Notes under the pieces: generated by a model
Database searches by the model: none
What the model was told of the DNA's origin: nothing
What the model saw: only the letters and a program-made list of their open reading frames with translations
Program-made: the position numbers and the translations under genes
Shown here: in pieces, positions 1 to 54,900 of the stretch
How positions within the stretch are numbered: position 1 is the first letter of the stretch
Layout of the letters: each line of letters opens with the position of its first letter
NCBI GenBank assembly: GCA_964016885.1
Contig: OZ024740.1
Coordinates: 410,626,001 to 410,690,000 of the forward strand
Reading direction: 5' to 3'
Origin: Eledone cirrhosa
Taxonomy: Eukaryota
DNA length: 64,000 nt

Positions 1-285
1 ATCTCTCTGTTGCTTTCTTTTGTCTTTCTTATTTCTTTCTTTTTTCTTTTTTTTTCATTTCCTCCTATCTATTTTTATATATATCTTCCTTTTCTCTCTC
101 TCCTTCTTTTTTCTCTCTCCCTCTATATCTCCGTTTTTCTTTTCTCTCCGTCTTTTTTCTAACTGTGCTTAACACTACAACTAATAAAATAATTATAAAC
201 ATATCACTATCCAGGCAGCTTCCAAAAGTAATGGTCGCTTCTAATAGGGTACGTCAAAATTATTTATAAAAGTGTTTATATATTG

Positions 286-350
286 TATTTTGTCTGATGA
301 AGGCATACCATATTTTAATTTGGTATCCCCGAAATATGTATAATGAAATA
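286..350 (+). ncRNA. Minimal type I hammerhead ribozyme (PLE pLTR-type)
   Basis: TATTTTGT-CTGATGA-aggcatacca/tggtatcccc (stem II)-GAAA-TATGTA-TA-ATGAAATA. Stem I pairs with 2 G-U. Followed by an AT-rich tail and (TA)n at ~393. Confidence 0.8.
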
Positions 351-390
351 AATATGGTTTTATAAATATAGTTTCCATTTATTTAATATC

Positions 391-427
<37 letters not shown>

Positions 428-2021: not shown

Positions 2022-4169
2022 ATATTTATTAAAATAACAGATTAAAGTTTAAGCAAAGGATCGCTGCTTTCACCCCTAACGGGAACGGGATCTTCTGAAA
2101 CTAACAAAGTCAATCTGTGAACGCAGAAGTGAATATTTCAAAAATGTTGCAACCGGAGGAAGACAGGAAGACGATACTTTGTTCCGTCGAAACGTTCCCT
2201 GGCAAAGAACGAAAAAAAACGAATATAATACGTCATTATTTGGAGCGGTGAAAAACAATTACACGCAAAGACAAAATCACGTTGTATCAGATGAAATAAT
2301 GGTATTTAACTAATGTATTGGTACGCGATGGGGCCCACCCACAGCCCCGGCGGACAGAATGGAGAAGGCGTTTCCCCGGAGGACGGCAAGGGAGACGCGC
2401 TGGAAAAGCCACTCCAACTCGCGGGGCTCACACCTGCGGCTCGCCAGCTCAGCGCCTATGGTGGTGAGTAAGGAGGTATAAAAGAAGTCGTCGACTAATA
2501 TTCTATTAGGTGGTTCATAGAGACGTTCTCTGGCAATGAACGGAAAAAACGAAGATAATACGTCATATGTGGAGCCTAGAGAACAATTGCACGCAAAGAC
2601 ATAACCACATAAATGGTATAACTGAAGTCGTAGACTAATATTCTAACTAGGAAACCGAATGATTCTCGGCTTCAGAGTTAAGAATAAAGTAAATAAAATA
2701 CAGAGGTAATTGAAATTAAATAAATAGATACACAAGCATACGCGAAAAATCCTGCCATAGGTATACAAATACAAGCACATATAAATATGTGTGTGTGTGT
2801 GCGCGTGTATACAAATAATTAAATAAACTTATGTAAATAAATACGTATATAACAAGCGCACACACATACCTACATGTAAATACACATATGTTGGGAGACG
2901 TACGTCAACCAAAACACGAAGAGCACATATACACACACCCTACATACGTACGAACCCGCATAATCACACAGACGCAAAACTTACACTTACAGATAACCAA
3001 AAGCATATGTACCAGAATATATAAAATATACGCCATAACATATACAATAAAATATACGTACGAGAAAGTATACGTACTTTCACAAAACATGCAGGTAATA
3101 TATACTTACCTATACAAATAAGTAATGGTAAAAAAAAACATATACTTAGCTACCACATCAAGACGTAAAATATCCGCGTATAGTTGGTACTATCCGTTGG
3201 GGTATAATGTGGGGCTGTATTACAGGAAAGTTTTGTGCAATTTATGTTTACAAGCCAAAATTGTCTCAGATTTTTTGTTTAAGTGTGGTCTATGGCGTAG
3301 AATATTTCCAGGGCCTCAGCGGTGCAGAGGTCCAATGGTCTTTTATTTCCGTTATACAATCTAGCCCTAGCTAGGATCTCGCAGTGTAACTTATATTGGG
3401 TGTGGTTGTCTTTTAGACTCCAGATATAATCTGAAAGTGACGTCATAATCCTTCTTAGAGGGTAACGAAAAGAATGGGTATGCATGTAAAGACGCTGCTT
3501 GAATCTATTGGCGGTTAACCCTATGTAGGCCCTACGGGACGTTTGTGTTTCAACCTTACATTTGTAGACAATGTTACTAGAGTGGCATTTCCCGGATAGG
3601 GGGCAGTCAACCCGATTCTTACAATTACAGTTAGTACTAACTACAGGGTTGCACGTGTTCCTACGGATAGTTAGTTTAGCGAAATTTGAAGCTTTGATGT
3701 TATGTGCAAGGTTAGGAATCGTAGAGTAAGAAATTTTAATAGTATTTCTATTAAAAATGTTACTATATTTATGTGTAGGGGGAAAATGCTTCGTAATAAG
3801 GGAGAGAAAGATCTTAGCTAATGGTGTGGCCACCTCCATATTATACAGTGGGTTATACCATATAATGCGTCGGGATCTATTTCTTCTAGGTCTATTGTAT
3901 ATGCTACCTTATCGACAAATCCACTCCGAGCAAGAGCTTCATTGTAATATGTGCTTCATTGTAATATGTGCTTCATTGTAATATGTGGTCATTGAAGATA
4001 TGCTCGTTAGTAGATAGACGCGAAAGCCTCAAAGAAACGTCTCTTACCAGGTTCTTAGTTATGCTGGCAGGATGGTTAATACATTTTTGCTCTACGGTTC
4101 TTATATATTTGATATATATTTATCCTTATCGAGCCCTCTTTGGATTTTAGTCTTCAAATTTATTATCAT

Positions 4170-4762: not shown

Positions 4763-4871
<109 letters not shown>

Positions 4872-4979
4872 GCAAAAGTTTTATTTAAAATTGTTGGGTT
4901 ACAACAAGTAAATATTTTATAACCGATATAAAGCACTCGACAAGTTTTTGGAGTAGATATACGATATTAAACAAATGGA

Positions 4980-5014
<35 letters not shown>

Positions 5015-8714: not shown

Positions 8715-9328
8715 GTGGTGGAACACTGGATCCAACCGACCAAACGAACCACAGGAGGTCAAATCCTATGTGGAAATGACGGAGGGCTGATTTAAGCAAC
8801 GTTTCCTGAACCACAAGTCTACCTTCAGGTACCCGGACAGACGTTCATCCACGAAACTCGCGAGCCACGTATGGTCCCTCAAGGACTCAAGTATAGACTA
8901 CCCCATCCAATGGAAAGCCATCACTAAGTCCAAGCCATACGCAAGGGGAAATCCGACGTGTGGCTTATGTATTGATGAACGAATAACTATTCTAAAGAGA
9001 TTACGCAATAGTGATTGCCTAAACACGAGAAATGAATTTTTCACACGGTGTCCAGACGTCGCCAAACACCTATTGAATAACTACAAGGCTCCGGACTGAC
9101 TCCTTGTAATTTTATTTTCAACTAAAAATTTTCGGACTTTCGCAGTTATCTCCCTTACACCTCTCGCACGCATTCTAGTATTGCCTGTGTGAGGTGATCG
9201 GGTTTCTGCGCATGCGCGTTCGTACGGTTGTCCTTCCTGTTCCTATAACCATGCCCATTACGAGCTGAGGATCCGCTAAGGTGAAACAATTGTTCTCGGT
9301 ATGGTGAACTAACTGTTGTGTAACCACT
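8715..9328 (+). mobile_element. 5'-truncated PLE (GIY-YIG 3' half, UTR, HHR)
   Basis: ~8755-9099 translates EVKSYVEMTEG*FKQRFLNHKSTFRY..KLASHVWSLK..WK..CGLC..E..LNTRNEFFTRC, with one in-frame stop. (TA)n on both flanks. Confidence 0.85.
9261..9298 (+). ncRNA. Minimal type I hammerhead ribozyme
   Basis: CGAG-CTGAGGA-tccgctaaggt-GAAA-CAATTG-TT-CTCG. Palindromic stem III, downstream of the PLE ORF. Confidence 0.75.
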
Positions 9329-16297: not shown

Positions 16298-19065
16298 TAT
16301 TTCGTTTCTGAATTTGTTTAGCAAGATTCTTTATCTGAAAAAGTGTGTTGAAACCGATATTGTAATACTTTGGGAGGGTCATGTTACCAATAAGAAACAC
16401 ACGCACCAGTTGCTTTCACTTAAATTTATTATAATAAATTTATAAATTTCTGGTTGGTTGGTTGGTTCCACAACCAGATAGTTGTTTATATATAGTCATA
16501 GTCCTTTCGTCACACATTCTGTGACATCTTCAGTGACTGGGGATTCTTTTCTTTGTTTTTGTGCCTCTCGTTTGTTCTATCCTACGCCATCTTGTTTTCG
16601 TGTGTGTGTTGTATGCTTAGTTTGCGCATGTGTTACATCCGGGTGTCCGTGTGTGTTTATATTCGTTTATTTATTTGTTTATTTGCACGTTACTGGTTGG
16701 TTGTTTGTTCTATGTGCTTGTGTGTTTTCCTTTTGTCCTTAATTGTAAGTTGTGATGTTGCTGTTCCTTCATGTTTTCTATTTAATTTTGGTTGGAGTTC
16801 ATTTATGTTTATTGCCTCTGTGATTTCTCTAAACATTGCGTCTTTTCTGTGTGTAGATTCTATTTTTATTTCTATGTTCTCTAATTTACCCTTTTGTTCT
16901 ATTTTAGCATGTTGGTAGAGTATTGATGATTATTTTTTATCCTGAAGCTCTCGCCAGTATTCATTTAACCGTTCTCCTATACTACGAGCTGTCTCACCTA
17001 TGTACACTATATTCTTATCTTTACATTGTCCTTCAGTACATCTTATGCTATATACTACATTTCTAGTTTTACATTTAATATGGGGGCTCAGTTTACAGAT
17101 TACGCATTTCTTATCTATACAGGGAGGTCTTTGAAAAGGGTATGTATTACTAATAAGTGTTTTTATGGAGGTACCTGGTCTTTCTACTATCTTAATATTA
17201 AGTTTAAGTTTATCTAGGGCCCTTCTAAATTTGTAAGCTAATTCACCTCTAGGAGTTGTATTGATGAACATTACACTCTGGTATTTATTGCTATCATACC
17301 ATGAGTTTATTCTATTAACCTTATTCCAAGTTCTTTCTATTCTATTCCAAAATGTGCTTCTATACAAGGGGCAGGTCCCATTTGTATCATTATTTACCAT
17401 TTTTTCCCCATTTGGTTCTGGCTCCTCTATATACTCTGATTTTATCTCTCTGATTGTAACCAGAGAACTATATACGGTGGATGAAGTGTTGTATGTGTCT
17501 TTCTAGTTCTTTGGAGTTGCACATGCGGGACACATTTCTCATCACCCGTACCAAATCCGCAATCAGTATGTTGATTTTGGTGTGATCCGAAACAGCTGTG
17601 TTTCGGTAGATCAGATATTAGGAAGTCATGGGTTTGGCATAATGGGAATGGAGGATTTGTTTTTTGTTATTAATGGTTTCTAACCAGAATTCTGTTTCCA
17701 ACCATCGATTACCAGTCTAGTACAGGTAATCGATGGTTGGGGTGTTTGCTTGGATAGTCTATAGTAACTCTAATACTCTGGTGGATGGAGTTAGCTATTT
17801 GCTGGATGCTTTCCATGCTGTTTTTCTCTAATTCCTAACTGTTCTCTAGTGGGGGTGTTTTTACTACGATGTTTATATCATCAACGTAGCGGGAGTTCAT
17901 TATCAGGGTTAAGAGTTTGCTGTCTTCTAATTGTTCTTTAAGTTTAAGTTTAAATTTATTGTCCCACCATACCATGAATAGGTTAGATATGTCACCTGCA
18001 ATGCTAACACCAATTGCTGCTCCATCCTCTTGGGCATATGTTTTTCTATTAAATTTGAACACATGTTCCTTAAGGGTTAGTTTTATACTGGCCCCCACCG
18101 CATGTGCAATCATTTTCTTTAGTTCATCGTGGTTTTCGGGGGTCTGTATGGCTCTGGTCCACCCGTTCCATCTTTCTGTGTGGGTTTTCTTGGCCATTGA
18201 GGTAATGGTAGGTGGTCTGCTCTTGCTGGTGTGGTAGGGAACAGGTTGCTAAGGTCATACGTATCTAGATAATCATTACTATAGGTAAGTTTAAGTAGGA
18301 GTCCCAGCTCACTGGTATCAATCCCACGGAATTCAACATTGCTCTCACTGAACATTTCTACGCATTTCTCCACAGCAAAATCCACGCCAATGGATGCATA
18401 TAGGGACACAACATCCATACTACCTATTATACAGTCTGTTAGGTCCCTAGATCGGTTATTTTCGCTGATTCTGCTGAGGAGGTCCTCCGTGCTGTCACAT
18501 ATATCTGGGGACATTTCAATGATGGGGCGAATGATCAGGGAGAGGAAGTAGGTAAGTCTGTAGTTACTAGCAATGTTAGCTCCACACACTGGCCGTGTTG
18601 GTGGTCCTGTGACAGGGTCATTGTTCGTCTTATGGTCTTTTTGAAGCCCATACAACTCTGGCACGTCATTGTTCCAGGCCTGGAAGTTGTTGGCAGTCCT
18701 TTTATTGGGCTGCATTATGTTTGTCTACATCATCATATGGGCATTGAGGGTTTTCTCCCTATCCTCATGCTCTTGTGGTGTTACTTCTCTTGTGTTAGTG
18801 ATGTGGGGTTGCATTGCCTGCATGTAGTTTGACAGACTGTTAACCAACATTCTGCCAGACTTGTCTGTTGGAAAGCATGCAATCTCTCCATTACGCGAGC
18901 GCTGCATGAGCTTACGCAAGCCATTTGCAGATATTTCTTCCAGTTGTTGGGCCTCCATTCTATTTTACTTCTTGCTATACTGTTCTACAATATTTCTAAG
19001 TTTAGATCTAGCTATACTAAATTCTGCTTCGGTTTGTTCATCCACGGTTAGTTGTGGGGTCTAGT
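16298..19065 (-). mobile_element. Penelope-like element, family B: RT + GIY-YIG, frameshifted, with HHR-bearing 3' pLTR
   Basis: ORF pieces 18725-18958 (PTDKSGR), 18119-18715 (PTRPV..GSMDVVSLY), 17835-18197 (QEDGAAIG..RYVDDI) and 16930-17400 (C-rich linker, NVVYSIRC..YIGETARS). Confidence 0.93.
16494..16538 (-). ncRNA. Minimal type I hammerhead ribozyme in PLE family B pLTR
   Basis: AGTCA-CTGAAGA-t-GTCACA gaatg TGTGAC-GAAA-GGAC-TA-TGACT, with stems I and II perfect. Confidence 0.88.
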
Positions 19066-19163: not shown

Positions 19164-21083
19164 ATATAAGTTAAAACAATGAAATAAAAATTCAAGTCAT
19201 TAGAAATATACTTCACTGTTTTACGATCGTTTCTAGGTGATAATAATACACCGTACGCATATTTCGTTATCGATCTATGTAGGGTTAGTTACAAAATATC
19301 AAATATGGAATATATTTACCTACATGTATACCATCAGCCGTTGTCAAAAGCAATGAAAATTTTATTCAAAATCAATAGTAAATTGAGTTCTATGACCTTA
19401 TTTGGATGTAGCCAAAAACCATCTTACGTATGGTTGTAATTGCATAAATAGAAGCGTTTGCTCCTTAAATGGCAACTGTTTGATTAATAATGTAATATAT
19501 AAATGCACTGTGTCTACTACTGACTCCAACAAATCATATATAGGATCTACATCGAACACATTTAAGAAAAGATATTACGCACACTCCAGTAGCTTTAACA
19601 ATACTAAACTAGTTAACACCACATCTTTAGCTGAAGCAGTAAATAACTATACAAAGAAAAAAAATAGATTTCAAGCTATCGTGGAATACCATTCTGCAAA
19701 GAACTCCATATCTTGGGAACAGGAGAGAATGCAGGTTATGTTCCGGGGAGATCTTGGAAATTACTAAATCTAAGGACGATTTATTGAATAAAGGACAGGA
19801 ACTGATTATAGCTTGTAATCACCGTATACGAAAAACATTTAAGTACTATAAACCTAATTAAACACTCTAAATAACAACTCACTATAGTTCTATGTGACGT
19901 ACCATTTGTTAGTATCCCCTTCCCCTAATTATAAGCTTTCCTGTTTATTTTTTTATTTTTTAACCTTTTAATTTTTTAGCTTCCATAGATTCATGCGTTT
20001 CTGACTAAGGGCATCAAGGTACATAACCACCTGTAATTGCATGGGTATACATGTATCTATGTATGTATGATAGGAGAATATATATATATATATGTATGTA
20101 TATATGGGTGTATATGTGTATGTGTGTGTATATGTGTATGTATATGTATGTGTCTGTACATGTATATATGTATGTATAAGTGCGTATATATGTATATATA
20201 TATATGTATATATATATGTTTGTGTGCGTGTATGTATGTATGTGTATATGTTTATATCTATGTATGCGTATGTATGTTTTTAATGGAGTATCAATGTAAT
20301 TATACCTCTATCTATATATGTGAATATATGTACTTTTGTTGTCTAAGAAAATTATGCGTTTTGACTATATGTCAACATGCATTTATCTGAGTTTGATTAC
20401 TTATACACTTGAAAATATCTACTATTTTATATTTTATGATGCATCATATGCTATATTATACTATATACAATGTACCATACTGTACTATATTATACTACAT
20501 TATATTATATTATTATATTATTATATTTTATTATCTTATTATAATTTTCATCTTTTAATATACTATCCTTCCTAGTTATGACCATTACTTTACCAATCTA
20601 TATTTATCCTAGTTATTTCTGTATATTTTATATTTACTTATCTATATTCACCTAAAACTTCCATACAACACAACTCAACCATCTACAATCCACTATCAAT
20701 ATAATAATTCCTTTTTATTCATAGATTCTTTATAGTAATTCTATTTTTAACACCATTTAATCATTCCTTTCAAAGGGTCATGACCTCAACTAAAGTGAGT
20801 TATATTTCATCTTAACATCATATGGCAAAAAACCATTTGATTGGTTTGTTCTTCAGCTACCTCCAAATAAGGTCATAGAACTCAATTTACTATTGATTTT
20901 GAATAAAATTTTCATTGCTTTGACATACATGTAGGTAAATATATTCCTTATTTGATATTTTGTAACTAACCCTACATAGATCGATAACGAAATATGCGTA
21001 CGATGTATTATTATCACCTAGAAACGATCGTAAAGAAGTGAAGTAAATTTCTAATGACTTGAATTTTTATTTCATTGTTTTAA

Positions 21084-21090
<7 letters not shown>
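19164..21090 (+). mobile_element. 5'-truncated PLE with inverted pLTRs flanking a GIY-YIG
   Basis: ORF 19402-19767 has CNC..CSLNGNC..NVIYKC..YIGST..FKKRY..H..SF. Arms 19164-19412 and 20856-21090 are inverted copies. Confidence 0.88.
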
Positions 21091-21149
<59 letters not shown>

Positions 21150-21194
21150 CTAAACAATATTAATAAATGGAAAATATCTTTACAAAACCATATT

Positions 21195-21255
21195 TATTTT
21201 ATTATACGTATTTCAAGGGTACTAATATTTAAGTACGCTTTCGTCAGATAAAATA
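21195..21255 (-). ncRNA. Minimal type I hammerhead ribozyme in a short (TA)n-flanked module
   Basis: TATTTTAT-CTGACGA-aagcgtact..agtaccctt-GAAA-TACGTA-TA-ATAAAATA. The downstream tail is shared with the 286-350 copy. Confidence 0.88.
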
Positions 21256-22460
21256 TAATATTTGGTGTTAAAATAGTGACATATCTTCATGTGAACTTAA
21301 TGGTATAAGCCCAATGTTTATATATATATATATATATATCTGTGTGTGTGTGATGGATGTCTGTGTGTCATGTAGGTCTAACATTTGTACCTCCCTTTTT
21401 CGCTGGAAGCATGCAGTATTTTAGTAATTTCCAATGATTGGATCACACGACGAGGATGACGCATACAAAAATGCAAAGACCTTAAAACCACACCCAAAGC
21501 ACTCAACACTTAACATAGGATGCTGTAGTATTATCAACTGAAGAACTTAGTGTGACAACTCCTATATATAATACTCCTCCCGAGTAACAAACCTAATCGG
21601 AAGTTGTGCTGCTTCCGCATCTGATCGACATGAACTTTTTATTTTTATTAATATGGTGCCAAGACTGTGTCGTGTCTTTCTAGGGTGGAGTTGTATATAC
21701 AGAGCTAAACAGAGGGTAACAATATGGACGCAAAATGTTTTTATGCATAAGATTTAACAGAGACATATGCTTGTGAAACTTGTGATCTACTTCCTGAATG
21801 TTTGAAGCAATGAAACTAACATGTAAATACACACACACACACATATATATATATAAGTAAGCACATGTGTGCATGTATAAGTATGACTTAGGAGTTCGTC
21901 TGACCTTAGGCAGAATTTTTTACTTTTCATCTCAACGTGAACAAAAACTACTCGCTTCATCTTTGGTTTTGTAGCGTTTCGCCGACGACTCGATCATGCA
22001 ACGGCTCTCACTATATTACATGTTGCGAATGGCGTTCAAAGATGACCTCATATACACTCCACTCACACAAACACAAAGGCACCGCATTTCATGTTAGTTT
22101 GTCTGTGTGTGTTTTTATGAGAGGTGTATGCATTCAAAATTGATACCAAGGGAGCTAATGTGTTTTTGTAGTGTCGTTACTTATAGAGAATTAATATTCA
22201 GGTATTCGATATTAAGAAATCATTGAATATGTTGGCTTTGATATCACTCACTTTTCTGTATCTCGATCTATGTTTACTGCCTGAAAATTTCTCTCTATAA
22301 CATATGTTGCATATCGCCTGAAATGTTGCTCTTTTCATATTACAATGCGTAACTAAATTAATAGAAAATGGCAATAAATCCCTACATCATACTTCAGATT
22401 GACATATTCATACGCACACACACACATGCACACGCACAAATATGAATGTATGTATGTATG

Positions 22461-25400
22461 TTCTTCTTGTTTTATAATTTCACAAAGTTTTACCAATAGA
22501 GAGAGAGTCCGTTTCTAACATAGACACATACTCTCTCATTGGAATTTACACAACATCAACTAGGTAGGTATGTATGTATGCATGCATGTGTAGATATGGA
22601 TGTTATTGTATGTGTGGATGTGTATGTTTTGAGTTGTATGTGTGCATGTGTGTATGCTTTGCATCTGTATATGTGTATATGCAGTTATTAGATGCAACAT
22701 TTTTGGAATGTCTTACATATTTTTACTGTTCCATTAATGGATTGTACTTGTAATTTCCTAACTAGTTGTGTTCTTTCTGTTCCTGTGAAGCCTAGCTTCT
22801 CAAGATTTTTATTGAGGCAGTTACTAACATATGCCAGTACCCCAATAATCACAGGCATAAATCTGAAGGTATAATCAGGGTGGAGTATCTGCAGATTTTT
22901 CATCAGTTCTGCATAAATATTCTCCTTGTCGCTAATCTTTGATATTATATTGGCATCTGTTGGACAGCTAACTTCCACTACTGTGCATGCTTTCTTCTCC
23001 CTGTCCCATATCATAATATCTGGTCTGTTATGCCTGCATTTTATTGGGGTTTTTACTGCAACATTCGACCAGTACTCTTTCATATTATGTACATGGATGT
23101 CTTCCATATTGCTGTAGCTTTTAATGTGTTTATTATCGGGTCTATCTTTTTTACGAACTGCATTGTACAGTGTTTTGGCTACTACATCATGGCTCATAGG
23201 TAGATAGTACCACGATGACATATTTGGACAGCTGCTGATGACATGGGTGATATCCTCGATGTTAGTTCTGCTGAGTCTGCACTTGTTATCACATCTAGGT
23301 GTTTTGCCTGCATCCCTATCTCTTTTGTGAATCAGGTATTTCGTGCTAATCTCCTGTTCCTGGATTGCAAAAGCGTATCCTTCAAAGTGGGAGCCAATAT
23401 AGTGGTTGTTGGTCCAAGATAGACTACTTTCCTTATCTATATTACTCTCACTCTGGAGCTTCCTGGCAAGATATCCATGCATGCATTTTTGCTGATAGGC
23501 ATGCAGTTTTTCATCCATGGATTCACTGCGATACTGCTGAGCGACATCCCTGGGTGTGATGTTTTGATTATCACACAGGGAATATCTCTCGAGGAGTTCC
23601 TTCCCAACTCTCATGATCTTATCTGTTTCATGCAGATAGACTTGCTCGAGAAACGGGCTCCTACGCTTCGAGGTTCGTAGATGTTGTCGGAGAGATATGA
23701 TGCGACATTCAAATGTTGTCTGGACTGATGTTAGGCCTCTGCCTCCCTGTTTACGTTTCAAGTAAAGGCGGTCTATGTCACTGTCGATGTGGAAGTTTCC
23801 GGTGTTGTTCAGTATTTTTCGAGTTCCAGCATCAACTGCTCGGATTTCGTCTATCGTCCAATTGAGTATTCCAAACGTTGGTGTTAGGACAGGCACTACA
23901 AACACATTGTGAGTCACTGTTTTGTTTTGCGCAGAGAGTTCCGATGACAAGATCTTTCTTAATCGGGTGTAGTATTCCTTGGTTACGCGTTCTTTATTAC
24001 AGATACCATTATACGATCTGTAGCAGTCCTCATCAGATATCGGTGAAATAGTTAGGCCATTGATGACAATGTTGCTAGATTGGGTTGTTGTTTTCCCCCG
24101 CTTTACAGTCATGTATGAGCATTTATCTTGGCCAAACTCCATCCTATATCCTTTGAGAACGTTGTAACCAGGTCAAGATTTTTCTTCATCTCATCCATGT
24201 TCTTGGCATAGAGTCTCAGATCGTCCACAAAGAAATTAGGGGTTAGGTTCGTATTTCTGTCCTCCTGTGAGCCAATGATGTATCCCCCACATTTCTTGAG
24301 CAGAAAGGACAAGGGGTTTAATGACAAGATGAATAATATCACAGAAAGACTGCCCCCCCCCCCCCCCCTGAAATATACCCCTCAATATTTTATTTTATCA
24401 GTGAAAATAGAGTCCCCCCTTTCTGTCTTTAACCTTAGGATAGTAGCCCAAGAAGAAGACAGCCTCTCTATGGCTCTGACAATAATGTCTGGGACTTTAG
24501 CAAGTTGGAGGGCCTCTATCATCCAAGAATGGGGAATAGAATCAAAAGCTTTCCTGTAGTCCAGCCAGACTGTAGTCATATTCCTCCTAAGTTGTCGCAC
24601 CTCCGACATCGCAATTTTGTTGATTAGGAGTTGTTCAGCACATCCCCAAACCCCTTTCTTTCCAGCTGCTTGTTCATCTGTGATGATGTTCTTATTTTCA
24701 CAGTGATCTTGGAGGAATAGGCTCAGACAGGCTGTATACATCTTATACATCAGGTTCTGGCATGCAATGGGTCGGTAGTTTTTTGCAAAGTGGGTGTCTT
24801 TATTCTTGGGGACCAGTAATGTTTGTGCTAATGTCAACCATTCTGGTATAAGTGTTTCTCCCTTAAGAACTTGTTGGTAGAGGTCAGTAAGATACCTCCG
24901 ATAGAATATCAGTTTTTTGTACCAGTAGCCGACAAACATGTCTCTTCCTGGTGTTTTCTTATCTTGGAGTTTTCCTATCACAGTCTCAAGGGTACCCTCC
25001 CTTATTTCGTATGTTTTTGTTGTAGTGTAGGAGCAATAGTTCTTTCGGATTTCTCTTAACCACACTCCATCATGGATGAAATTCTTCTTTTCACCCCATA
25101 TTTTGCTCCAAAAGGAATCTATGTCTTTTAGGGATGGGCCTCAGTGACACTTATTATTTTGCCCTTCATATCTCTATAGACTGATGTTTGGTTTCGTCTG
25201 AATCTTTTATTATGCACTTTTCTCTCATCTACCTTCTTCAGGTATCGGCGTTTTTCGCTAACGGCCCTCAATTCTTGTTTGAGGGTGATCAGCTTATATT
25301 GGAGAGTTCTGGTTCTACTGTTACCAAACATCGTCTCTATTTTATTTTTCACTCTTTGTTGGTGAGGAGTGAGGTTTTTTTGTGTTTGTTTGCATGTAAG

Positions 25401-26521
25401 GAGCATTGTCACATATCCTATGTTTTTTCGTAGGTCAACAATCTTTTTTTCTATTTTAGTTATATATGATGGTATTTTTGGTGGTGTTTTGTTCTTGGTA
25501 ATATCTCTGCTATCACCAAGATAATGCTTCACTGTCATTGCTAAGGCATATAAACAGGCGTTGATTTGTCAAAATGTTGGGATTTTTATCCGTCGTAATA
25601 TTCATTCCCTATTTCGTCAATAACACGTAATATTTCATTATTTGTTTTTTTATTCAACATTGTCGTTTTAACAACAGAAATATTTATACATGAGTTAATT
25701 TCTCTCTGGAAGATTTCGTTGAGGGAAATTTTCAATTGTTTATATTTTGATTATCCTTATCGATAGTATTTTCCAGAATAGTCGAGGTAGCCTCGGATAG
25801 TACACGTGGTGTCAAATTTCTTCGATTATTATTATTATCGATAGTGTTTTCCCCAGCATTCGAGGTAGACTTAGATGGTACAGGTGGTGTCAAGTTTCTT
25901 ACAGGCATAGTTGTTTCAAGGCGCTGTTCGACCTGGCTGCTAGGAAGTCTAGTAGTATGGCGACCTGTAGCAAGTATTGTTGATAACATGTTTGTTGTGG
26001 GGGACTTACAATTAATACGTTCAACAAACGTCGCTTGTTGGCGTAATTGTTTCGCTGTGAAATAATTTAGCTCTGAGTGCATTTCGTCCCACTGTAGCTT
26101 CATTCTGTTCATATAGCCAATGGAGGGATTGTTTTTTGTCATTTTATAACAATTAAATAAATCATTATTAAGTTCGCAACTCCAAGAGAAATGCGATTTA
26201 TAATTTCGGTTTCTTCTGTAGCTACAACTGAATAAAGTTTGATTACTTTCCTTGTTATTTGTCTTCGATACTTCCTTAATTTTTTTGTTGATATTGTGTT
26301 CAGCCATGTTATTTGTAGCAAATTTTTGTAAAATGAATTATGTATTTAGTCGGATATCTCTACGAATTCGAATAAAAGGTGTCTTCAGAAGGGATAGTTA
26401 GAAGAATAACCAGTTATTCAACCTGACTGTAGTTGTGGCATTACTGTCGGAGATAGTATTCATCTTAAATTTAATAAATAGTCTCCCACGCCAAAATATG
26501 GGACTGTTCGCGTTGACTGTC
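22461..26521 (-). mobile_element. Near full-length R4/Dong-type non-LTR retrotransposon (RT + CCHC + restriction-like endonuclease), frameshifted
   Basis: RT motifs TPGRD, NYRPIAC, WLDYRKAFDSIPH and FVDDL. GGRGL. Degenerate CCHC CRLS..EDITHVISSC. RLE HDVV..RPDI..VEVSCP..KENIY. ORF pieces span 22688-26307. (TATG)n on both flanks. Confidence 0.9.
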
Positions 26522-28845: not shown

Positions 28846-30593
28846 ACTTTCTTTTTATTTGCCACCAGGGCATCAAAAGTGGGACAAGTACCATGGGGGG
28901 AGTTTACATAACAAGGCGTCCTCAATATGGAGCAGGCAATAACAAAGTATAAAAATAAAATACAATATAACAAAATAAATTTTATAACAAAATCCTCCAT
29001 AGGGAGGCGGCGCCTTGGGGGGTCGCACACACCCCCGAAAAAAAGTGTGCAACCCTTCTCCTCAGGAGCACAGAGAGGGGTGCTCCCTTGATCTTTCCTC
29101 TTCCTCACCTATAGTCTGATGTAGAGTGAAGGCCCATTCACACGGGCCATTCTCGCCACTTTCACCCATCTTTCATAAAAACGGCTGGGGTGCAGCACCT
29201 CTCTCTCCATCCTGATCCTTCTTCCGAAATGATATCGGAAGAAACGGACCAGTTGTTGGTCAGAGAGAAAGGTGCCTGACTTCAGTCCTTTCAGACGCGT
29301 CCACCATACAACCTCTTTCGCCATGGCTATTACGCACAGAAACACCGCTTCTCCTTCGTTTTTGAAGAGGGGGGCGGCTTGATCGTTACAATAGACTCGG
29401 TGGTAAACCGGATCGGTCTCACCCTTGATAGAAGTTGTTCGACATAGCCCCACAGATCGGTAATGCCCGAGCAGTGTACCAATGCGTGTGCAACGGTTTC
29501 CTCGTCGCACACGCATCTGGGACAAATCTTTTTCGAGGGGTCCCTACCCGGGCGCCCGTGTCTGTAGAGCCTTTCTCGAACGGGCAGAGCTCTTCGGTAG
29601 CACTGCCAGGCCAGAGACCTCTGGAAGTTATCCATGGGTCCCGGGCTGAATGTCCTACCGAACAGGTTGGCCAGTTCGTCTTCCTCCATGCCTAGGGCTT
29701 CTCCGAGGGCGTCATCGTACCTGCTAACCACCAGCCCTCTATAGAATGACGAGGTGGATTCTCCACTGACAGCCGGGTCCGCCTGCCAGAGAGCCGTGAG
29801 CGCCTGGGCACACTAGGTGTGCCAGGCGCCCAGTTTTCTCGGTCTTTGCTTGACCCAGGATTGCAGCTCGGTGAGTGAGACGAGTCTGGTAAAGGCTCGC
29901 CTCACAAACGGGGCCCACACCGGTTGACCGGTGAGGAATACCTGGAGGTGCCGTAGCCTTAATGTGTGTTTACGTATAATTAGCCACGGCATCCCCAGCC
30001 CTCCTTTCGAAGGATGTTGACAGCAGATGGATCTCCTCACCATAGGAGCCCGCTTCTTCCAAAGGAATTGGAAGAGTGCGCGCTCCATTTTGGCGAGCGT
30101 TTCCCTTGGGCAAGGCACAACGGTCAGGCGATAGTAGATGACGGACGCTATATAAGTGTTCGCCACCTCCGCCCGACCTTTCAGGGACAGTTTGCACTCG
30201 GCCCACTTCTGGGTCAGTGCAAACACCCTGTTCGTTACCTCACCCCAGTTCTTCTCCACCTGGAGGTCTGGTCCGAACCAGACCCCGAGCAACTTCACCG
30301 GGCCCTCCGTCCAGCGCCCGACGACGCCATCGGAGGGCATCGATCTGCCCCTCCACGTGCCGAGTTGCAGACCGATCGACTTGTCCCGGTTCAGCTTAGC
30401 CCCTGTAAACCTTTCGTACTCCTACAGTAAGGTGCCGATCGCCCCGATTTCCGAGGCCGTCGACACCATTACTGTTACGTCGTCGGCGTAGGTCGACACC
30501 GCTTTCCGCAATGCCGGTTCTAACGGGATGCCCTGCAACAACTCCAACTTCCGCAGCAGTGGCTCTAGAGTCACTACATACAGAAGGGAGGAG
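28846..30593 (-). mobile_element. 5'-truncated Tx1/L1-clade LINE (RT C-half, CCHC, 3' UTR)
   Basis: [66 protein letters not shown]-rich. Flanked by (GATA/TA)n. Confidence 0.9.
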
Positions 30594-30636
30594 AGATAGA
30601 TAGATATATATAGATATGTGTATATATATATATATG

Positions 30637-31885
<1,249 letters not shown>

Positions 31886-31898
31886 ATATATATATATA

Positions 31899-32637
31899 TA
31901 TTTCGTTTCTGAATTTGTTTAGCAAGATTCTTTATCTGTAGAAACAAAAATATAGTGTACATAGGTGAGACAGCTCGTAGTATAGGGGAAAGGATAAATG
32001 AACACTGGCGAGACCTTCAAGATAATAAAGAATCATCTGTACTCTACCAACATGCTAAGATAGAACACAAGGGTAAATTAGAGAACATAGAAATAAAAAT
32101 AGAATCTACACACAGAAAAGATGCAATGTTTAGACAAATTACAGAGGCAATAAACATAAAAGAATTAAAACCAAAATTAAATAGAAAATATGAGTGGAAC
32201 AGCAACATCACAACTTACAATTAAGGACAAAATGAAAACACACACACACATAGAACAAACAACCAACCAATAACATGTAAATAAATAAATAAATAAACAA
32301 ATAGATAAATGAACATAAACACACACAGACACCCGGATGTGGCGCATGCGCAAACTGAGCACACAACACACACACAGAAACAAAATGGCGTAGGACAGAA
32401 CAAAGGAAAGGCACGGAGACAAAGAAAGGAATCCCCAGTCACTGAAGAGGTCACAGAGTGTGTGACGAAAGGACTATGACTATATATAAACAACTATCTG
32501 GTTGTGGAACCAACCAACCAACCAGAAATTTATAAATTTATAAATTTGTAAATTTATAAATATATAACAAATTGAAGTGAAAGCAACTGGTGCGTGTGTT
32601 TCTTATTGGCAACATGACCCCCCCAAAGTATAACAAT
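31899..32637 (+). mobile_element. 5'-truncated PLE family B copy (GIY-YIG C-half, pLTR) with inverted terminal fragment at 31899-31938
   Basis: ORF 31955-32224 YIGETARSIGER..HRKDAMFRQITEA. Close paralog of 16358-17020. Confidence 0.9.
32437..32481 (+). ncRNA. Minimal type I hammerhead ribozyme
   Basis: AGTCA-CTGAAGA-g-GTCACA gagtg TGTGAC-GAAA-GGAC-TA-TGACT. Confidence 0.88.
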
Positions 32638-39633: not shown

Positions 39634-39812
39634 ATATATGTATATATATATATATATAATTCGAATTAAAAGATATATATATATATATGTAGGAGGTGAG
39701 TTTTATTGTAGCACAATAAAGCAATGCAAATATCGGATAAGTAGCACTCCACAGTTTATAGAACTGGAGTATAAATAATATAAGATCAAAAGATGGTTAA
39801 AAGAGTTCCATG

Positions 39813-39883
39813 TATTTTATTATGCGCATTTCAAAAACAAATATCATCATGGGATGATATTTGCGTTCTCATCAGATAAAATA
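39813..39883 (-). ncRNA. Type I hammerhead ribozyme with long stem II
   Basis: TATTTTAT-CTGATGA-gaacgcaaatatcatc ccat gatgatatttgttttt-GAAA-TGCGCA-TA-ATAAAATA. The 3' half is repeated inverted at ~39950-40015 and again at ~41172-41226. Confidence 0.9.
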
Positions 39884-40009
39884 GGGAGACATGAAATGAA
39901 GCTTAAAAAACACTTGCGAGCAGTGAAGTGTTAAATCAACATATATGACATTTGTTTTTGAAATGCGCATAATAAAATACATGGAACTATTTTAACCATC
40001 TTTTGATCT

Positions 40010-40056
<47 letters not shown>

Positions 40057-40064
<8 letters not shown>

Positions 40065-40949
40065 TCACAGGAATCAAAGTTATGTTCAAACCATTTATTA
40101 GCTTACAATTGTTTCATCCAAACCGAGGCTTGGATTCTTCGGACCATTATTTAATGTTTGTATACATTCATGACCTCCTTTCCAACGCAAGAGACATACA
40201 GATACATATGTATATATTGATGTACAGTGGGGTGACATATATTATATTATTTCTGAATGGCAATTTAAATTCAAAAATTAAAATCATATTAAAACAGAAT
40301 CAAAGCAAAATTAAAATTAAAATATACATCGGCAGTTAACGTAGATAATGCAAGAGGATATTTTGTTAGTCAGTTGTAGTAGTTATTGTATGCATTAGTT
40401 ACACGTGGGGCATGCACGTGTGTCTTATTTATATATGATTATTGTGCGGCAGGGTGTTATATGCAATACAAGCACTTTAAGCGGGTAATCAAGAGTATTA
40501 TGGAGGTAATCTTGATTACCCGCTTAAAGTGCTTGTATTGCATATAACACCCTGCCTCACAATAATCATATATAAATAAGACACACGTGCATGCCCCACA
40601 TATAACTAATGCATACAATAACTACTACAACTGACTAACAAAATATCCTCTTGCATTATCTACGTTAACTGCCGATGTTGTATTTCAATTTTAATTTTGC
40701 TTTGATTCTGTTTTAATATGATTTTAATTTTTGAATTTAAATTGCCTTTCAGAAATAATATAATATATGTCACCCCACTGTGCATCAATATATACATATG
40801 TATCTGTATGTCTCTTGCGTTGGAAAGGAGGTCATGAATGTATACAAGCATTAAATAATGGTCCGAAGACTCCTAGCCTTGGTTTGGATGAAACAATTGT
40901 AAGCTAATAAATGGTTTGAACATAACTTTGATTCCTGTGAATTCTATAT
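40057..40949. repeat. ~0.9 kb fold-back element (~437-bp arms, 15-nt loop) with a decayed HHR in each arm
   Basis: 40057-40494 is the reverse complement of 40510-40949 with few mismatches. CCGAAGA..GAAA-CAATTG-TA at 40100-40145 (-) and 40860-40905 (+). Confidence 0.88.
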
Positions 40950-41105
40950 AACTGCTCTGTAGAACAACTGATGTTATTACATTGAGCTATTTATCTTACT
41001 GGTAATAAGGTAGTAATAAATTACTGCCTTCCACTGTTTAGGGTTTAAAATATATATAACTATAAAAAGTTTTAGTATATACATAACCATAAATAGTATC
41101 CTTAA

Positions 41106-42143: not shown

Positions 42144-42467
42144 CTACTGTCCATATATCGTGAGGAAGGTCCCGGCTCTAAGGTGTCTACATGTCCCGAA
42201 GAAGTCGGTTCTGAGGTTTATCAGGCCGCATCCACCTCTTAGTATCTCGAGGGTCTCGTTCAGGCATAGTTTGCATATGCAAGATCCCCCTTTATCAGGT
42301 GGTACTTTCCTGATTATGTACCAGGCCAGAGAGTACGGGGTCCTGTCCAGCTTAATCTTCCAGATCAGGTCGGAGAGAGCCGTGCTTTTCCTTTTGGCCT
42401 CCTTATTGAATGAATGGCGATTGTTGTACCAGCGGTCTTTAAAGCTCGTTGATAATTTGGCCAACAT
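42144..42467 (-). pseudogene. GIY-YIG C-terminal fragment of a PLE
   Basis: FKDRWYNNRHSF..STALSDLIWKIK..W.II..CKLCLNE..INLRTDFFGTCRH. Confidence 0.85.
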
Positions 42468-48931: not shown

Positions 48932-51900
48932 GACATTGTTGTTGTTATTGCTGGTGGTGGTGGCATGTTGTTGTTATTGGTGGTGGTGGTGGCATTGTTG
49001 TTGTTGTTGGTGGTGGTGGTGGCATTGTTGTTGTTGTTGGTGGTGGTGGTGGCATTGTTGTTATTGGTGGTGGTGGTGGCATTGTTGTTGTTGTTATTGC
49101 TGGTGGTGGTGGCATTGTTGTTGTTGTTATTGCTGGTGGTGGTGACATTGTTGTTGTTATTGGTGGTGGTGGTGGCATTGTTGTTGTTATTGGTGGTGGT
49201 GGTGGCATTGTTGTTGTTGTTATTGCTGGTGGTGGTGACATTGTTGTTGTTATTGGTGGTGGTGGTGGCATTGTTGTTGTTGTTATTGCTGGTGGTGGTG
49301 ACATTGTTGTTGTTATTGGTGGTGGTGGTGGCATTGTTGTTGTTATTGGTGGTGGTGGTGGCATTGTTGTTGTTATTGGTGGTGGTGGTGGCATTGTTGT
49401 TGTTATTGGTGGTGGTGGTGGCATTGTTGTTGTTATTGGTGGTGGTGGTGGCATTGTTGTTGTTATTGCTGGTGGTGGTGGCATTGTTGTTGTTATTGGT
49501 GGTGGTGGTGGCATTGTTGTTGTTATTGGTGGTGGTGGTGGCATTGTTGTTGTTATTGGTGGTGGTGGTGGCATTGTTGTTGTTATTGCTGGTGGTGGTG
49601 ACATTGTTGTTGTTATTGGTGGTGGTGGTGGCATTGTTGTTGTTATTGGTGGTGGTGGTGGCATTGTTGTTGTTGTTATTGCTGGTGGTGGTGACATTGT
49701 TGTTGTTATTGCTGGTGGTGGTGGCATTGTTGTTGTTGTTATTGCTGGTGGTGGTGGCATTGTTGTTGTTATTGCTGGTGGTGGTGGCATTGTTGTTGTT
49801 ATTGCTGGTGGTGGTGGCATTGTTGTTGTTGTTGCTGGTGGTGGTGGCATTGTTGTTGTTATTATTGCTGGTGGTGGTGGCATTGTTGTTGTTATTGGTG
49901 GTGGTGGTGGCATTGTTGTTGTTATTGGTGGTGGTGGTGGCATTGTTGTTGTTATTGGTGGTGGTGGTGGCACTGTTGTTGTTATTGGTGGTGGTGGTGG
50001 CACTGTTGTTGTTATTGGTGGTGGTGGTGGCATTGTTGTTGTTATTGGTGGTGGTGGTGGCATTGTTGTTGTTATTGTTGGTGGTGGTGGCATTGTTGTT
50101 GTTGTTGCTGGTGGTGGTGGCATTGTTGTTGTTATTGGTGGTGGTGGTGGCATTGTTGTTGTTGTTATTGCTGGTGGTGGTGGCATTGTTGTTGTTATTG
50201 GTGGTGGTGGTGGCATTGTTGTTGTTATTGGTGGTGGTGGTGGCATTGTTGTTGTTATTGGTGGTGGTGGTGGCATTGTTGTTGTTATTGCTGGTGGTGG
50301 TGGCATTGTTGTTGTTGTTGCTGGTGGTGGTGGCATTGTTGTTGTTATTGGTGGTGGTGGTGGCATTGTTGTTGTTGTTATTGCTGGTGGTGGTGGCATT
50401 GTTGTTGTTATTGGTGGTGGTGGTGGCATTGTTGTTGTTATTGGTGGTGGTGGTGGCATTGTTGTTGTTATTGCTGGTGGTGGTGGCATTGTTGTTGTTA
50501 TTGCTGGTGGTGGTGGCATTGTTGTTGTTATTGGTGGTGGTGGTGGCATTGTTGTTGTTGTTATTGCTGGTGGTGGTGGCATTGTTGTTGTTATTGGTGG
50601 TGGTGGTGGCATTGTTGTTGTTATTGGTGGTGGTGGTGGCATTGTTGTTGTTATTGGTGGTGGTGGTGGCATTGTTGTTGTTATTGCTGGTGGTGGTGGC
50701 ATTGTTGTTGTTGTTGCTGGTGGTGGTGGCATTGTTGTTGTTATTGGTGGTGGTGGTGGCATTGTTGTTGTTGTTATTGCTGGTGGTGGTGGCATTGTTG
50801 TTGTTATTGGTGGTGGTGGTGGCATTGTTGTTGTTATTGGTGGTGGTGGTGGCATTGTTGTTGTTATTGCTGGTGGTGGTGGCATTGTTGTTGTTATTGC
50901 TGGTGGTGGTGGCATTGTTGTTGTTATTGCTGGTGGTGGTGGCATTGTTGTTGTTGTTATTGCTGGTGGTGGTGGCATTGTTGTTGTTATTGGTGGTGGT
51001 GGTGGCATTGTTGTTGTTGTTGCTGGTGGTGGTGGCATTGTTGTTGTTATTGCTGGTGGTGGTGGCATGTTGTTGTTATTGCTGGTGGTGGTGGCATTGT
51101 TGTTGTTATTGCTGGTGGTGGTGGCATTGTTGTTGTTGTTATTGCTGGTGGTGGTGGCATTGTTGTTGTTATTGGTGGTGGTGGTGGCATTGTTGTTGTT
51201 GTTATTGGTGGTGGTGGTGGCATTGTTGTTGTTATTGCTGGTGGTGGTGGCATTGTTGTTGTTATTGCTGGTGGTGGTGGCATTGTTGTTGTTATTGGTG
51301 GTGGTGGTGGCATTGTTGTTGTTGTTATTGCTGGTGGTGGTGGCATTGTTGTTGTTATTGCTGGTGGTGGTGGCATTGTTGTTGTTATTGGTGGTGGTGG
51401 TGGCATTGTTGTTGTTATTGCTGGTGGTGGTGGCATTGTTGTTGTTATTGCTGGTGGTGGTGGCATTGTTGTTGTTATTGCTGGCGGTGGTGGCATTGTT
51501 GTTGTTGTTATTGCTGGTGGTGGTGACATTGTTGTTGTTATTGGTGGTGGTGGTGGCATTGTTGTTGTTATTGCTGGCGGTGGTGGCATTGTTGTTGTTA
51601 TTGCTGGTGGTGGTGGCATTGTTGTTGTTATTGGTGGTGGTGGTGGCATTGTTGTTGTTATTGCTGGTGGTGGTGGCATTGTTGTTGTTATTGCTGGTGG
51701 TGGTGGCATTGTTGTTGTTGTTATTGCTGGTGGTGGTGGCATTGTTGTTGTTATTGGTGGTGGTGGTGGCATTGTTGTTGTTATTGCTGGTGGTGGTGGC
51801 ATTGTTGTTGTTATTGGTGGTGGTGGTGGCATTGTTGTTGTTATTGCTGGTGGTGGTGGCATTGTTGTTGTTATTGCTGGTGGTGGTGGCATTGTTGTTG

Positions 51901-54900
51901 TTATTGGTGGTGGTGGTGGCATTGTTGTTGTTATTGGTGGTGGTGGTGGCATTGTTGTTGTTGTTATTGCTGGTGGTGGTGGCATTGTTGTTGTTATTGG
52001 TGGTGGTGGTGACATTGTTGTTGTTGTTATTGCTGGTGGTGGTGGCATTGTTGTTGTTATTGGTGGTGGTGGTGACATTGTTGTTGTTGTTATTGCTGGT
52101 GGTGGTGGCATTGTTGTTGTTATTGGTGGTGGTGGTGACATTGTTGTTGTTATTGGTGGTGGTGGTGACATTGTTGTTGTTGTTATTGCTGGTGGTGGTG
52201 GCATTGTTGTTGTTGTTATTGCTGGTGGTGGTGGCATTGTTGTTGTTATTGGTGGTGGTGGTGACATTGTTGTTGTTGTTATTGCTGGTGGTGGTGGCAT
52301 TGTTGTTGTTATTGGTGGTGGTGGTGACATTGTTGTTGTTGTTATTGCTGGTGGTGGTGGCATTGTTGTTGTTATTGGTGGTGGTGGTGACATTGTTGTT
52401 GTTGTTATTGCTGGTGGTGGTGGCATTGTTGTTGTTGTTATTGCTGGTGGTGGTGGCATTGTTGTTGTTATTGGTGGTGGTGGTGGCATTGTTGTTGTTA
52501 TTGGTGGTGGTGGTGGCATTGTTGTTGTTGTTATTGCTGGTGGTGGTGGCATTGTTGTTGTTGTTATTGCTGGTGGTGGTGGCATTGTTGTTGTTGTTGC
52601 TGGTGGTGGTGGCATTGTTGTTGTTATTGGTGGTGGTGGTGGTGGCATTGTTGTTGTTGTTATTGCTGGTGGTGGTGGCATTGTTGTTGTTATTGCTGGT
52701 GGTGGTGGCATTGTTGTTGTTATTGCTGGTGGTGGTGGCATTGTTGTTATTATTGGTGGTGGTGGTGGCATTGTTGTTGTTATTGCTGGTGGTGGTGGCA
52801 TTGTTGTTGTTGTTATTGCTGGTGGTGGTGGCATTGTTGTTGTTGTTATTGCTGGTGGTGGTGGCATTGTTGTTGTTGTTATTGCTGGTGGTGGTGGCAT
52901 TGTTGTTGTTATTGCTGGTGGTGGTGGCATTGTTGTTGTTGTTATTGCTGGTGGTGGTGGCATTGTTGTTGTTGTTATTGCTGGTGGTGGTGGCATTGTT
53001 GTTGTTGTTGCTGGTGGTGGTGGCATTGTTGTTGTTGTTGCTGGTGGTGGTGGCATTGTTGTTGTTATTGGTGGTGGTGGTGGTGGCATTGTTGTTGTTA
53101 TTGCTGGTGGTGGTGGCATTGTTGTTGTTGTTGCTGGTGGTGGTGGCATTGTTGTTGTTGTTGCTGGTGGTGGTGGCATTGTTGTTGTTATTGGTGGTGG
53201 TGGTGGTGGCATTGTTGTTGTTATTGGTGGTGGTGGTGGCATTGTTGTTGTTGTTGCTGGTGGTGGTGGCATTGTTGTTGTTATTGGTGGTGGTGGTGGC
53301 ATTGTTGTTGTTGTTGCTGGTGGTGGTGGCATTGTTGTTGTTATTGTTGGTGGTGGTGGCATTGTTGTTGTTATTGGTGGTGGTGGTGGTGGCATTGTTG
53401 TTGTTATTGCTGGTGGTGGTGGAATTGTTGTTGTTATTGCTGGTGGTGGTGGCATTGTTGTTGTTATTGCTGGTGGTGGTGGCATTGTAGTTGTTATTGC
53501 TGGTGGTGGTGGAATTGTTGTTGTTATTGCTGGTGGTGGTGGCATTGTAGTTGTTATTGCTGGTGGTGGTGGCATTGTTGTTGTTATTGCTGGTGGTGGT
53601 GGCATTGTTGTTGTTGTTATTGCTGGTGGTGGTGGCATTGTTGTAGTTGTTATTGCTGGTGGTGGTGGCATTGTTGTAGTTGTTATTGCTGGTGGTGGTG
53701 GCATTGTTGTTGTTATTGCTGGTGGTGGTGGTGGCATTGTTGTTATTGCTGGTGGTGGTGGAATTGTTGTTGTTATTGCTGGTGGTGGTAGTGGCATTGT
53801 TGTTGTTATTGGTGGTGGTGGTGGCATTGTTGTTGTTATTGCTGGTGGTGGTGGCATTGTTGTTGTTATTGGTGGTGGTTGTGGCATTGTTGTTGTTGTT
53901 GCTGGTGGTGGTGGCATTGTTGTTGTTATTGCTGGTGGTGGTGGTGGCATTGTTGTTGTTATTGCTGGTGGTGGTGGCATTGTTGTAGTTGTTATTGCTG
54001 GTGGTGGTGGCATTGTTGTTGTTATTGCTGGTGGTGGTGGTGGCATTGTTGTTGTTATTGCTGGTGGTGGTGGCATTGTTGTAGTTGTTATTGCTGGTGG
54101 TGGTGGCATTGTTGTTGTTATTGCTGGTGGTGGTGGTGGCATTGTTGTTGTTGTTGCTGGTGGTGGTGGCATTGTTGTTGTTATTGCTGGTGGTGGTGGT
54201 GGCATTGTTGTTGTTATTGCTGGTGGTGGTGGTGGCATTGTTGTTGTTATTGCTGGTGGTGGTGGCATTGTTGTTGTTATTGCTGGTGGTGGTGGCATGT
54301 TGTTGTTATTGCTGGTGGTGGTGGCATTGTTGTTGTTGTTATTGCTGGTGGTGGTGGCATTGTTGTTGTTGTTATTGCTGGTGGTGGTGGCATTGTTGTT
54401 GTTATTGGTGGTGGTTGTGGCATTGTTGTTGTTGTTATTGCTGGTGGTGGTGGCATTGTTGTTGTTATTGGTGGTGGTTGTGGCATTGTTGTTGTTGTTA
54501 TTGCTGGTGGTGGTGGCATTGTTGTTGTTATTGCTGGTGGTGGTGGTGGCATTGTTGTTGTTGTTGCTGGTGGTGGTGGCATTGTTGTTGTTATTGCTGG
54601 TGGTGGTGGTGGCATTGTTGTTGTTATTGCTGGTGGTGGTGGCATTGTTGTTGTTATTGCTGGTGGTGGTGGCATTGTTGTTGTTGTTATTGCTGGTGGT
54701 TGTGGCATTGTTGTTGTTGTTATTGCTGGTGGTGGTGGCATTGTTGTTGTTATTGCTGGTGGTGGTGGTGGCATTGTTGTTGTTATTGCTGGTGGTGGTG
54801 GTGGCATTGTTGTTGTTATTGCTGGTGGTGGTGGCATTGTTGTTGTTATTGCTGGTGGTGGTGGCATTGTTGTTGTTATTGCTGGTGGTGGTGGCATGTT

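Follow-up and report, generated by a model that had tools for sequence, protein, structure and literature searches.

The insert at about 21148–21316 (−) of the window, the whole 64 000-nt stretch of DNA analysed here, is almost certainly a solo pseudo-LTR (pLTR) piece of a Hydra-type Penelope-like retroelement (PLE) inserted in (TA)n. It belongs to the first of three related families, here called A, B and C, many of whose copies end at their 5′ side along a sharp edge common to all three. Judging from DNA ends alone, we lean slightly towards the view that the short pieces are run-off cDNA, made when priming takes place inside the element's own transcript, close to its 5′ end; the explanation as a whole, a solo pLTR piece of run-off origin, is regarded as moderately probable. 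The object itself is ordinary. Its element type, ribozyme type, tail, inverted pairs and solo pLTRs have all been published before, dispersed hammerheads of truncated PLEs having been known since 2014 (PMC4209133) and Hydra elements since 2021 (PMC8557442). The sharp 5′ edge shared by three families is the useful part.

The original prediction had placed hammerheads at 286, 21195 and 39813, and all three are present, at 286–350 (+), 21195–21255 (−) and 39813–39883 (−). Each combines the core CUGAYGA...GAAA with an 8-bp stem I, an AUA cleavage triplet and a self-complementary hexamer. As proposed, the stem I sequence TATTTTRT/ATRAAATA is common to the three sites, the hexamers are TATGTA, TACGTA and TGCGCA, each followed by UA, and the 286 and 21195 sites share a downstream tail. 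The 21195 site belongs to family A and has the form of a minimal type I hammerhead, in which stem I is formed by 21248–21255 and 21195–21202, CUGACGA occupies 21241–21247, stem II 21215–21240, GAAA 21211–21214 and the palindromic hexamer 21205–21210, with the predicted cut (AUA) between 21203 and 21202. The 286 site belongs to family B and carries an A–C mismatch in the first stem II pair, at the stem's base; the 39813 site belongs to family C. A structural descriptor scan recovered two of the three window sites, whereas 100 block-wise shuffles of bases 1–48900 averaged 0.01 hits (0 under the strict setting); the 286 site, missed because of its A–C mismatch, was identified by eye. Rfam models searched against the window gave no hammerhead match at E ≤ 1, the only matches being microsatellite-driven ones to miRNAs.

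The claim that stem II differs between families and nevertheless pairs was borne out on nine hand-picked representatives of families and subfamilies, taken from the window and from fetched loci. In eight of the nine stem II pairs both partners vary, and pairing is kept in 98.9% of cells, compared with 88.3% in shuffles (0 of 500 as high) and 34–59% in slid controls, a lenient control because the structure was drawn from the very sequences compared. Variation in stem I is one-sided only among these representatives, and the first stem II pair is A–U in four, G–U in three, G–C in one and another combination in one. With G–U counted, the hexamer is self-complementary in 403 of 421 descriptor hits (353 loci, redundant). 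The hammerhead fold of the monomer is predicted at −2.1 kcal/mol, against a minimum free energy of −8.9 kcal/mol, and the hexamer self-duplex at −6.5 kcal/mol. Since the hexamer is palindromic, only the dimer is predicted to cleave. In contigs of runs X1 and X4, depth over the cut-site region (21183–21212 of the window) is far above that over the remainder of the module, and the contig variants there give a TATATA hexamer, probably because the stretch is shared with a related family of greater abundance. Contigs of two sequencing runs at the family A piece contained only family variants and, in one contig, one opposite-strand joint; such contigs do not reveal RNA ends.

The idea of short modules holds for the 21195 site, which stands alone, but not for the 286 and 39813 sites, which are arms of inverted insertions. 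An insert of about 170 nt between two (TA)n tracts was correctly foreseen: counted from the predicted cleavage site, the piece extends from −114 to about +55 (the short 3′ class described below), with the (TA)n target tract at its 3′ end (21086–21146) and a shorter (TA)n tract at its 5′ end (about 21318–21340), and it aligns over its full length with longer copies such as L013 and L160. The family B site lies in the 3′ end (3′ UTR and pLTR) of an element at 1–396 (+), 97% identical to the complete copy L144; it is one arm of an inverted insertion of more than 1.7 kb that continues upstream of the window, and the inverted arm reaches the end of a GIY-YIG frame outside the window. The family C site is one arm of a head-to-head pair from 39689 to about 40010. 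Its direct arm, 39689–39944 (−), runs from −124 to +134 (long-tail 3′ class) and starts at the A of a TCA initiator-like motif; the inverted arm, 39947–40010 (+), is of the short 3′ class, with approximate ends.

The window holds many other traces of retroelements. The target tract of the family A piece lies at the end of a PLE-type insertion at 19164–21090, which has inverted 166-nt arms (19164–19329 and 20925–21090) enclosing a GIY-YIG fragment related to family B (19459–19846); no intact hammerhead core was seen in these arms. Further GIY-YIG fragments at 3261–3866, 8764–9078 and 42165–42452 are 35–43% identical to family B, and other Hydra-like families are therefore present. A tail-only piece of family B (+19 to +145) lies at 4866–5005 (−) and has no hammerhead. 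Fragments of RT and endonuclease from a different PLE-like family, at 16434–18724 and 31913–32541, form an inverted pair about 15 kb apart, and decayed frames at 22688–26337 and 29109–30838 resemble RTs of non-LTR retrotransposons. Near-perfect inverted repeats beside (TA)n at 30779–31900 and 40055–40950 (330-nt and 270-nt arms, 97%) are possibly fold-back insertions of other families. From 48934 to 64000 the window consists of a 30-nt unit repeated in tandem over 15 kb (486 copies, 91% matches, extreme strand skew), an array that runs on beyond the window end.

The identity of the piece follows from its longer relatives. A search of the 3.0-Gb genome with the stretch around the 21195 site gave 2207 first-look candidates, and the 40 of these that were scored yielded 51 matches; many copies of the family A piece continue past both its ends. 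One of the loci, L014, has a GIY-YIG frame just upstream of the module, and its use as a query yielded 30 loci. With L014 itself excluded, the module lies 777–1401 nt downstream on the same strand in 22 of 29 endonuclease-selected loci; in three it is found on the opposite strand only, and in four there is none within the fetched flank. Complete pLTR–ORF–pLTR copies also exist, though they are rare. L159 is a decayed complete copy of family A with hammerheads about 4.0 kb apart. Its first hammerhead is followed by an ATG (about +196), by RT and endonuclease whose frames are broken, by a 3′ UTR and by the second hammerhead. L144 is a complete copy of family B, a 3899-bp unit with its frame in two pieces. 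Family C is linked in pieces: L096 joins it to the ORF start, and L116, L246 and L252 join it to the endonuclease end. Long copies with RT and GIY-YIG end in the same pLTR DNA, which also precedes their frame, and all three families are joined to RT and GIY-YIG. Of the two readings offered earlier for the short modules, that of extremely 5′-truncated PLEs is in this respect confirmed; the question whether any copy extends into an RT ORF is answered in the affirmative.

In protein segments, identity between families A and B is 37–68%, and that between C and B about 43–50% over longer segments. The C-terminal GIY-YIG linker CxCx5C reads CNCRNNISC in family A, CNCRNKSNC in B and CNCPNRTKC in C, and the motifs near the endonuclease E and N read CHLCIEE...CLH, CDLCVEE...CRH and CNLCLAE...CLH, respectively. 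Families A and B have one cysteine between GIY and YIG and no two-cysteine insert. At the positions of the RWK and DKT motifs, family B has RWR and DKT, in agreement with the Hydra clade; the agreement is approximate for family A, with HWR and DKN in one decayed copy, and for family C, with RWI and a DKT position that is frameshifted in L096. Membership of the Hydra clade is suggested by these motifs and by a by-eye comparison with Hydra-1_Obim. Domain order and motifs rule out Naiad and Neptune. No Pfam family was found for any of eight frame proteins, and a PDB sequence search with the frames gave one match at chance level (E = 0.36).

To count ends, copies were drawn by exact match to a core of 36–45 nt, with no selection on length. 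The samples comprised all 74 copies of family A, 81 of 688 of family B (contig C1 only) and the first 79 of 794 matches of family C (contig C1 only). End calls are uncertain by a few bases, 3′ calls can overshoot into TA, and the arms of one inverted insertion were counted separately. An adjacent inverted arm accompanies 24 of 74 copies in family A, 44 of 81 in B and 28 of 79 in C. Among the fetched loci of the three families, inverted neighbours are almost all head-to-head, the usual layout of PLEs (PMC3846280), and the inverted 5′ copies and optional tail at one end that characterize PLEs are found in all three families. A SINE-like element lies at the same place, just before the family A stem I, in L054, L159, L181, L197 and L199; this recurrence suggests a preferred target.

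The 5′ ends, which could have been fixed or ragged, pile up in a zone of about 20 nt in all three families. In family A, 41 of 74 lie at −105 to −126, with two more in −127 to −346, and 14 of 74 copies reach beyond −300 from the cut site; in family B, 25 of 81 lie at −119 to −137 and none in −138 to −182; in family C, 17 of 79 lie at −109 to −125 and none in −126 to −148. On its upstream side the zone ends no more than about 2 nt from the A of a TCA, at −122, −137 and −124 in A, B and C, respectively, in families A and B within TCACT; one reference carries another TCA at −125/−126, where three family A copies end. Within 20 nt at the TCA lie 39 ends, compared with four in the 60 nt upstream, in family A, 23 compared with two in B, and 17 compared with five in C; the corresponding binomial p-values (1e-19, 2e-12 and 4e-7) are too small because both arms of one insertion were counted. 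TCA is moreover a common sequence, occurring twice in 155 nt of family B and three to four times in 75 nt of A and C, and the three coincidences are not independent because the families are related. Further 5′ alignment edges occur near −255 and −400 in a family B subfamily (L430–L456) and may be reference artefacts or other hot spots. The original prediction was to fall if all copies were random truncations of one autonomous PLE and no discrete small or circular RNA were detected. The PLE origin holds, but three families are involved and their 5′ ends are not random.

The 3′ ends fall into two classes, at about +55 and +144 in family A, +57 and +145 in B, and +51 and +134 in C. A hairpin-like motif occurs twice per leader close to these positions (+63/+149, +57/+149 and +51/+141, respectively), with weak predicted stability (−1.9 to −5.6 kcal/mol). 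The second hairpin lies beyond the end of the long-tail copies and is therefore present only in the leader before the ORF, so long-tail copies must be primed on leader-containing RNA. Such internal priming has precedent: the Anolis PLE enzyme primes upstream of the RNA 3′ end, requires ORF-start RNA and gives a shorter product from a 5′-shortened template, and two internal priming sites explain the PLE tail in vitro (PMC11167929). Transcription of Penelope in Drosophila virilis begins inside the pLTR, upstream of the hammerhead (PMC2377424; PMC4209133), and an Inr-like TCACT occurs in rotifer pLTRs (PMC3846280).

These ends may be accounted for as follows. Transcription would start at the initiator-like TCA (−122, −137 and −124 in A, B and C, respectively). 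The element protein would then nick (TA)n DNA and prime inside the RNA just before one of the two hairpin-like motifs. When priming occurs in the 5′ leader, the template would run out at the RNA 5′ end and a piece of 170 or 270 nt would be integrated, often as a head-to-head pair, while priming at the 3′ pLTR, or a jump there, would give rise to the longer copies. As a passenger, the hammerhead would be copied uncut. None of 30 tail-selected family B copies begins within 5 nt of the cleavage site, and among the ORF-start copies of B and C (30 each) the starts are spread out, a single one lying at +1 (C) and a single one at +6 (B); the lack of copies starting at the cut site is in line with the hammerhead being copied uncut.

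The same element could give the same pieces by another route, in which ordinary 5′ truncations, copied from the 3′ pLTR of a long RNA, stall at a structural or protein-bound barrier about 120–135 nt above the cleavage site; we consider this possible but not probable. Truncation at the 5′ end is standard for PLEs (PMC8557442; PMC4209133), a 9-bp inverted repeat can be seen in the sequence around −119/−80 in family A, and 17, 17 and 13 copies (A, B and C) end short of the zone. The family A ends, however, lie at the far (5′) side of this hairpin rather than the near side, the zone edge is sharp on its upstream side, and, apart from the TCA, the families have different sequences at the edge. Opposite indications come from copies that contain the ORF start. 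In family B, none of the 16 that reach the zone stops in it and all 16 pass the edge, compared with 25 of 64 other copies that stop (Fisher p = 0.002), which argues against a block acting at every pass; in family C, two of 12 stop in the zone, compared with 17 of 66 (p = 0.72), and this lack of a difference speaks for stalling and against run-off. The family A ORF-start set consists mostly of 74–84% relatives and was unusable. Run-off cDNA, which we still prefer, needs an addition for the longer copies. In family B, 16 of 30 ORF-start copies run seamlessly past the proposed start, so an extra step would be required: a template jump, tandem read-through or a circle. A circular template has been proposed for PLEs (PMC4209133).

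In ORF-start copies the upstream pLTR has a ragged 5′ end, a point that weighs on a further explanation, namely that solo pieces are left by recombination or deletion between two pLTRs, in the manner of solo LTRs. This has been suggested for several rotifer solo pLTRs (PMC3846280). Here it would give ragged solos; moreover, head-to-head pairs with both arms of 100–130 nt are frequent and complete copies (L144, L159) are rare, which makes it highly improbable.

The remaining explanation is the one first put forward alongside truncation: a separate non-autonomous, retrozyme-like RNA with fixed ends, self-cleaving and perhaps circular, mobilized in trans as monomers. The clustering of both copy ends would fit it, as would locus L008 (G000:C19:13984701–13985155), which consists of three head-to-tail 145-nt units of family A, each with a hammerhead and each starting at the 5′ hot spot; retrozymes have, in addition, been proposed to derive from pLTRs (bioRxiv 10.64898/2026.07.22.740005). 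Against this, no substitution is private to short copies in a comparison of 41 short with 34 long family A copies, in which the 19 copies with intermediate ends were set aside and long copies were added from other searches; the four strongest allele differences arose through the selection imposed by the exact-core search. By nearest-neighbour distances, short copies are about as near to long ones as to each other. The cleavage site lies in the middle of the unit and not at an end, none of the 30 tail-selected family B copies begins within 5 nt of it, and in the fetched loci direct repeats at less than 400 nt occur only at L008 (159, 145 and 122 anchors in A, B and C, overlapping loci counting twice). 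With no private alleles in short copies and a single tandem locus, mobilization in trans as a small self-cleaving RNA is largely refuted at the DNA level, and we regard it as improbable.

The run-off origin can be carried further, in a form that we offer tentatively and consider less likely than not: the modules would be the PLE equivalent of retroviral strong-stop DNA, the leader always being the site of priming and the copy extending to the capped end and then either integrating or jumping. The leader would hold both hairpin signals and the ORF start, and the jump would go to the matching 3′ pLTR. If this were true, repeated jumps would rebuild a seamless pLTR of variable length, and the start site could be mapped, with no RNA needed, from thousands of genomic ends. 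The literature covered, mainly open-access papers, yielded neither a link between solo pLTR ends and the start site nor a proposal of a strong-stop step for PLEs. If the edge is a transcription start, the inserts would be fossil records of where the RNA and its copying began and would show the ribozyme being copied uncut; the regeneration of pLTRs, stated to be an open question in PMC2377424, would then become testable.

Among known systems, the closest is the Hydra clade, represented by Hydra-1_Obim (PMC8557442). Shared with it are RT followed by GIY-YIG in one frame, the CxCx5C linker, RW-basic and DKT motifs, CxxC and CxH beside the E and N of the endonuclease, a hammerhead close to the 3′ end, insertion into (TA)n, inverted 5′ copies and a one-sided tail. 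The resemblance extends to longer motifs, family B having IRRIRWRAFHF and SDKTNNLY where Hydra-1_Obim has IRRMRWKAFFF and SDKTNNLY. Published Hydra families are generally smaller than 3 kb, whereas the units here are about 3.9–4.0 kb (3899 bp in B; about 4.0 kb, with later insertions, in A) and include an AT-rich 3′ UTR of 1.0–1.4 kb. The tail is about 85–90 nt, compared with 30–40 in the clade, and the hammerhead is not the same as that given for Hydra-1_Obim (PMC8557442).

The Anolis Poseidon element PAc (PMC11167929) and the Penelope of D. virilis (PMC2377424) belong to a different clade from the Hydra-type families but offer parallels in mechanism. Two internal RT starts define the tail in PAc, as they may here, and hammerhead cleavage is unnecessary for its insertion, no reads being reported at the cut site (PMC11167929); the promoter and start site of Penelope lie inside the pLTR, as proposed here (PMC2377424). 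The PAc hammerhead overlaps the ORF start (PMC11167929), whereas in the present families the ORF starts about 190–210 nt after the cut. The relevant parts of PMC11167929 and PMC2377424 draw no link from solo pieces to the start site.

Non-LTR retrozymes (PMC7229834; bioRxiv 10.64898/2026.07.22.740005) are likewise short, non-coding, AT-rich, type I and related to pLTRs. They are defined, however, by tandem hammerhead units and circular RNA (PMC7229834), whereas the copies here are solo or head-to-head and continuous with an ORF element. Among the fetched loci, tandem units of the retrozyme kind (150–450 bp, each with a hammerhead) are approached only by L008 (3 × 145 nt), and no non-coding lineage amplifying apart from the autonomous element was found; having few tandem units and no short-only alleles, the family is thus not a retrozyme by the published definition (PMC7229834; bioRxiv 10.64898/2026.07.22.740005).

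The ribozymes themselves resemble the metazoan PLE min-HHR (PMC4209133) in being type I with a long stem II, paired stems I and II, a palindromic helix III region and the core CUGANGA/GAAA/UH. In both cases the families covary, most motifs are single and dispersed and are ascribed to truncated PLEs, and pairs lie 100–700 bp apart on opposite strands; the covariation seen here runs between PLE families and has already been described for PLE hammerheads (PMC4209133). Differences are found in the stems. Stem I is 8 bp, and stem II follows CUGANGA directly, usually with an A–U or G–U pair, whereas the min-HHR has G10.1–C11.1 (PMC4209133); neither this pair nor an unpaired base between positions 9 and 10.1 is a feature of the present families, and a conserved pyrimidine mismatch follows the first three stem II pairs, unlike in the PLE min-HHR. 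The relevant parts of PMC4209133 contain no description of a fixed 5′ edge.
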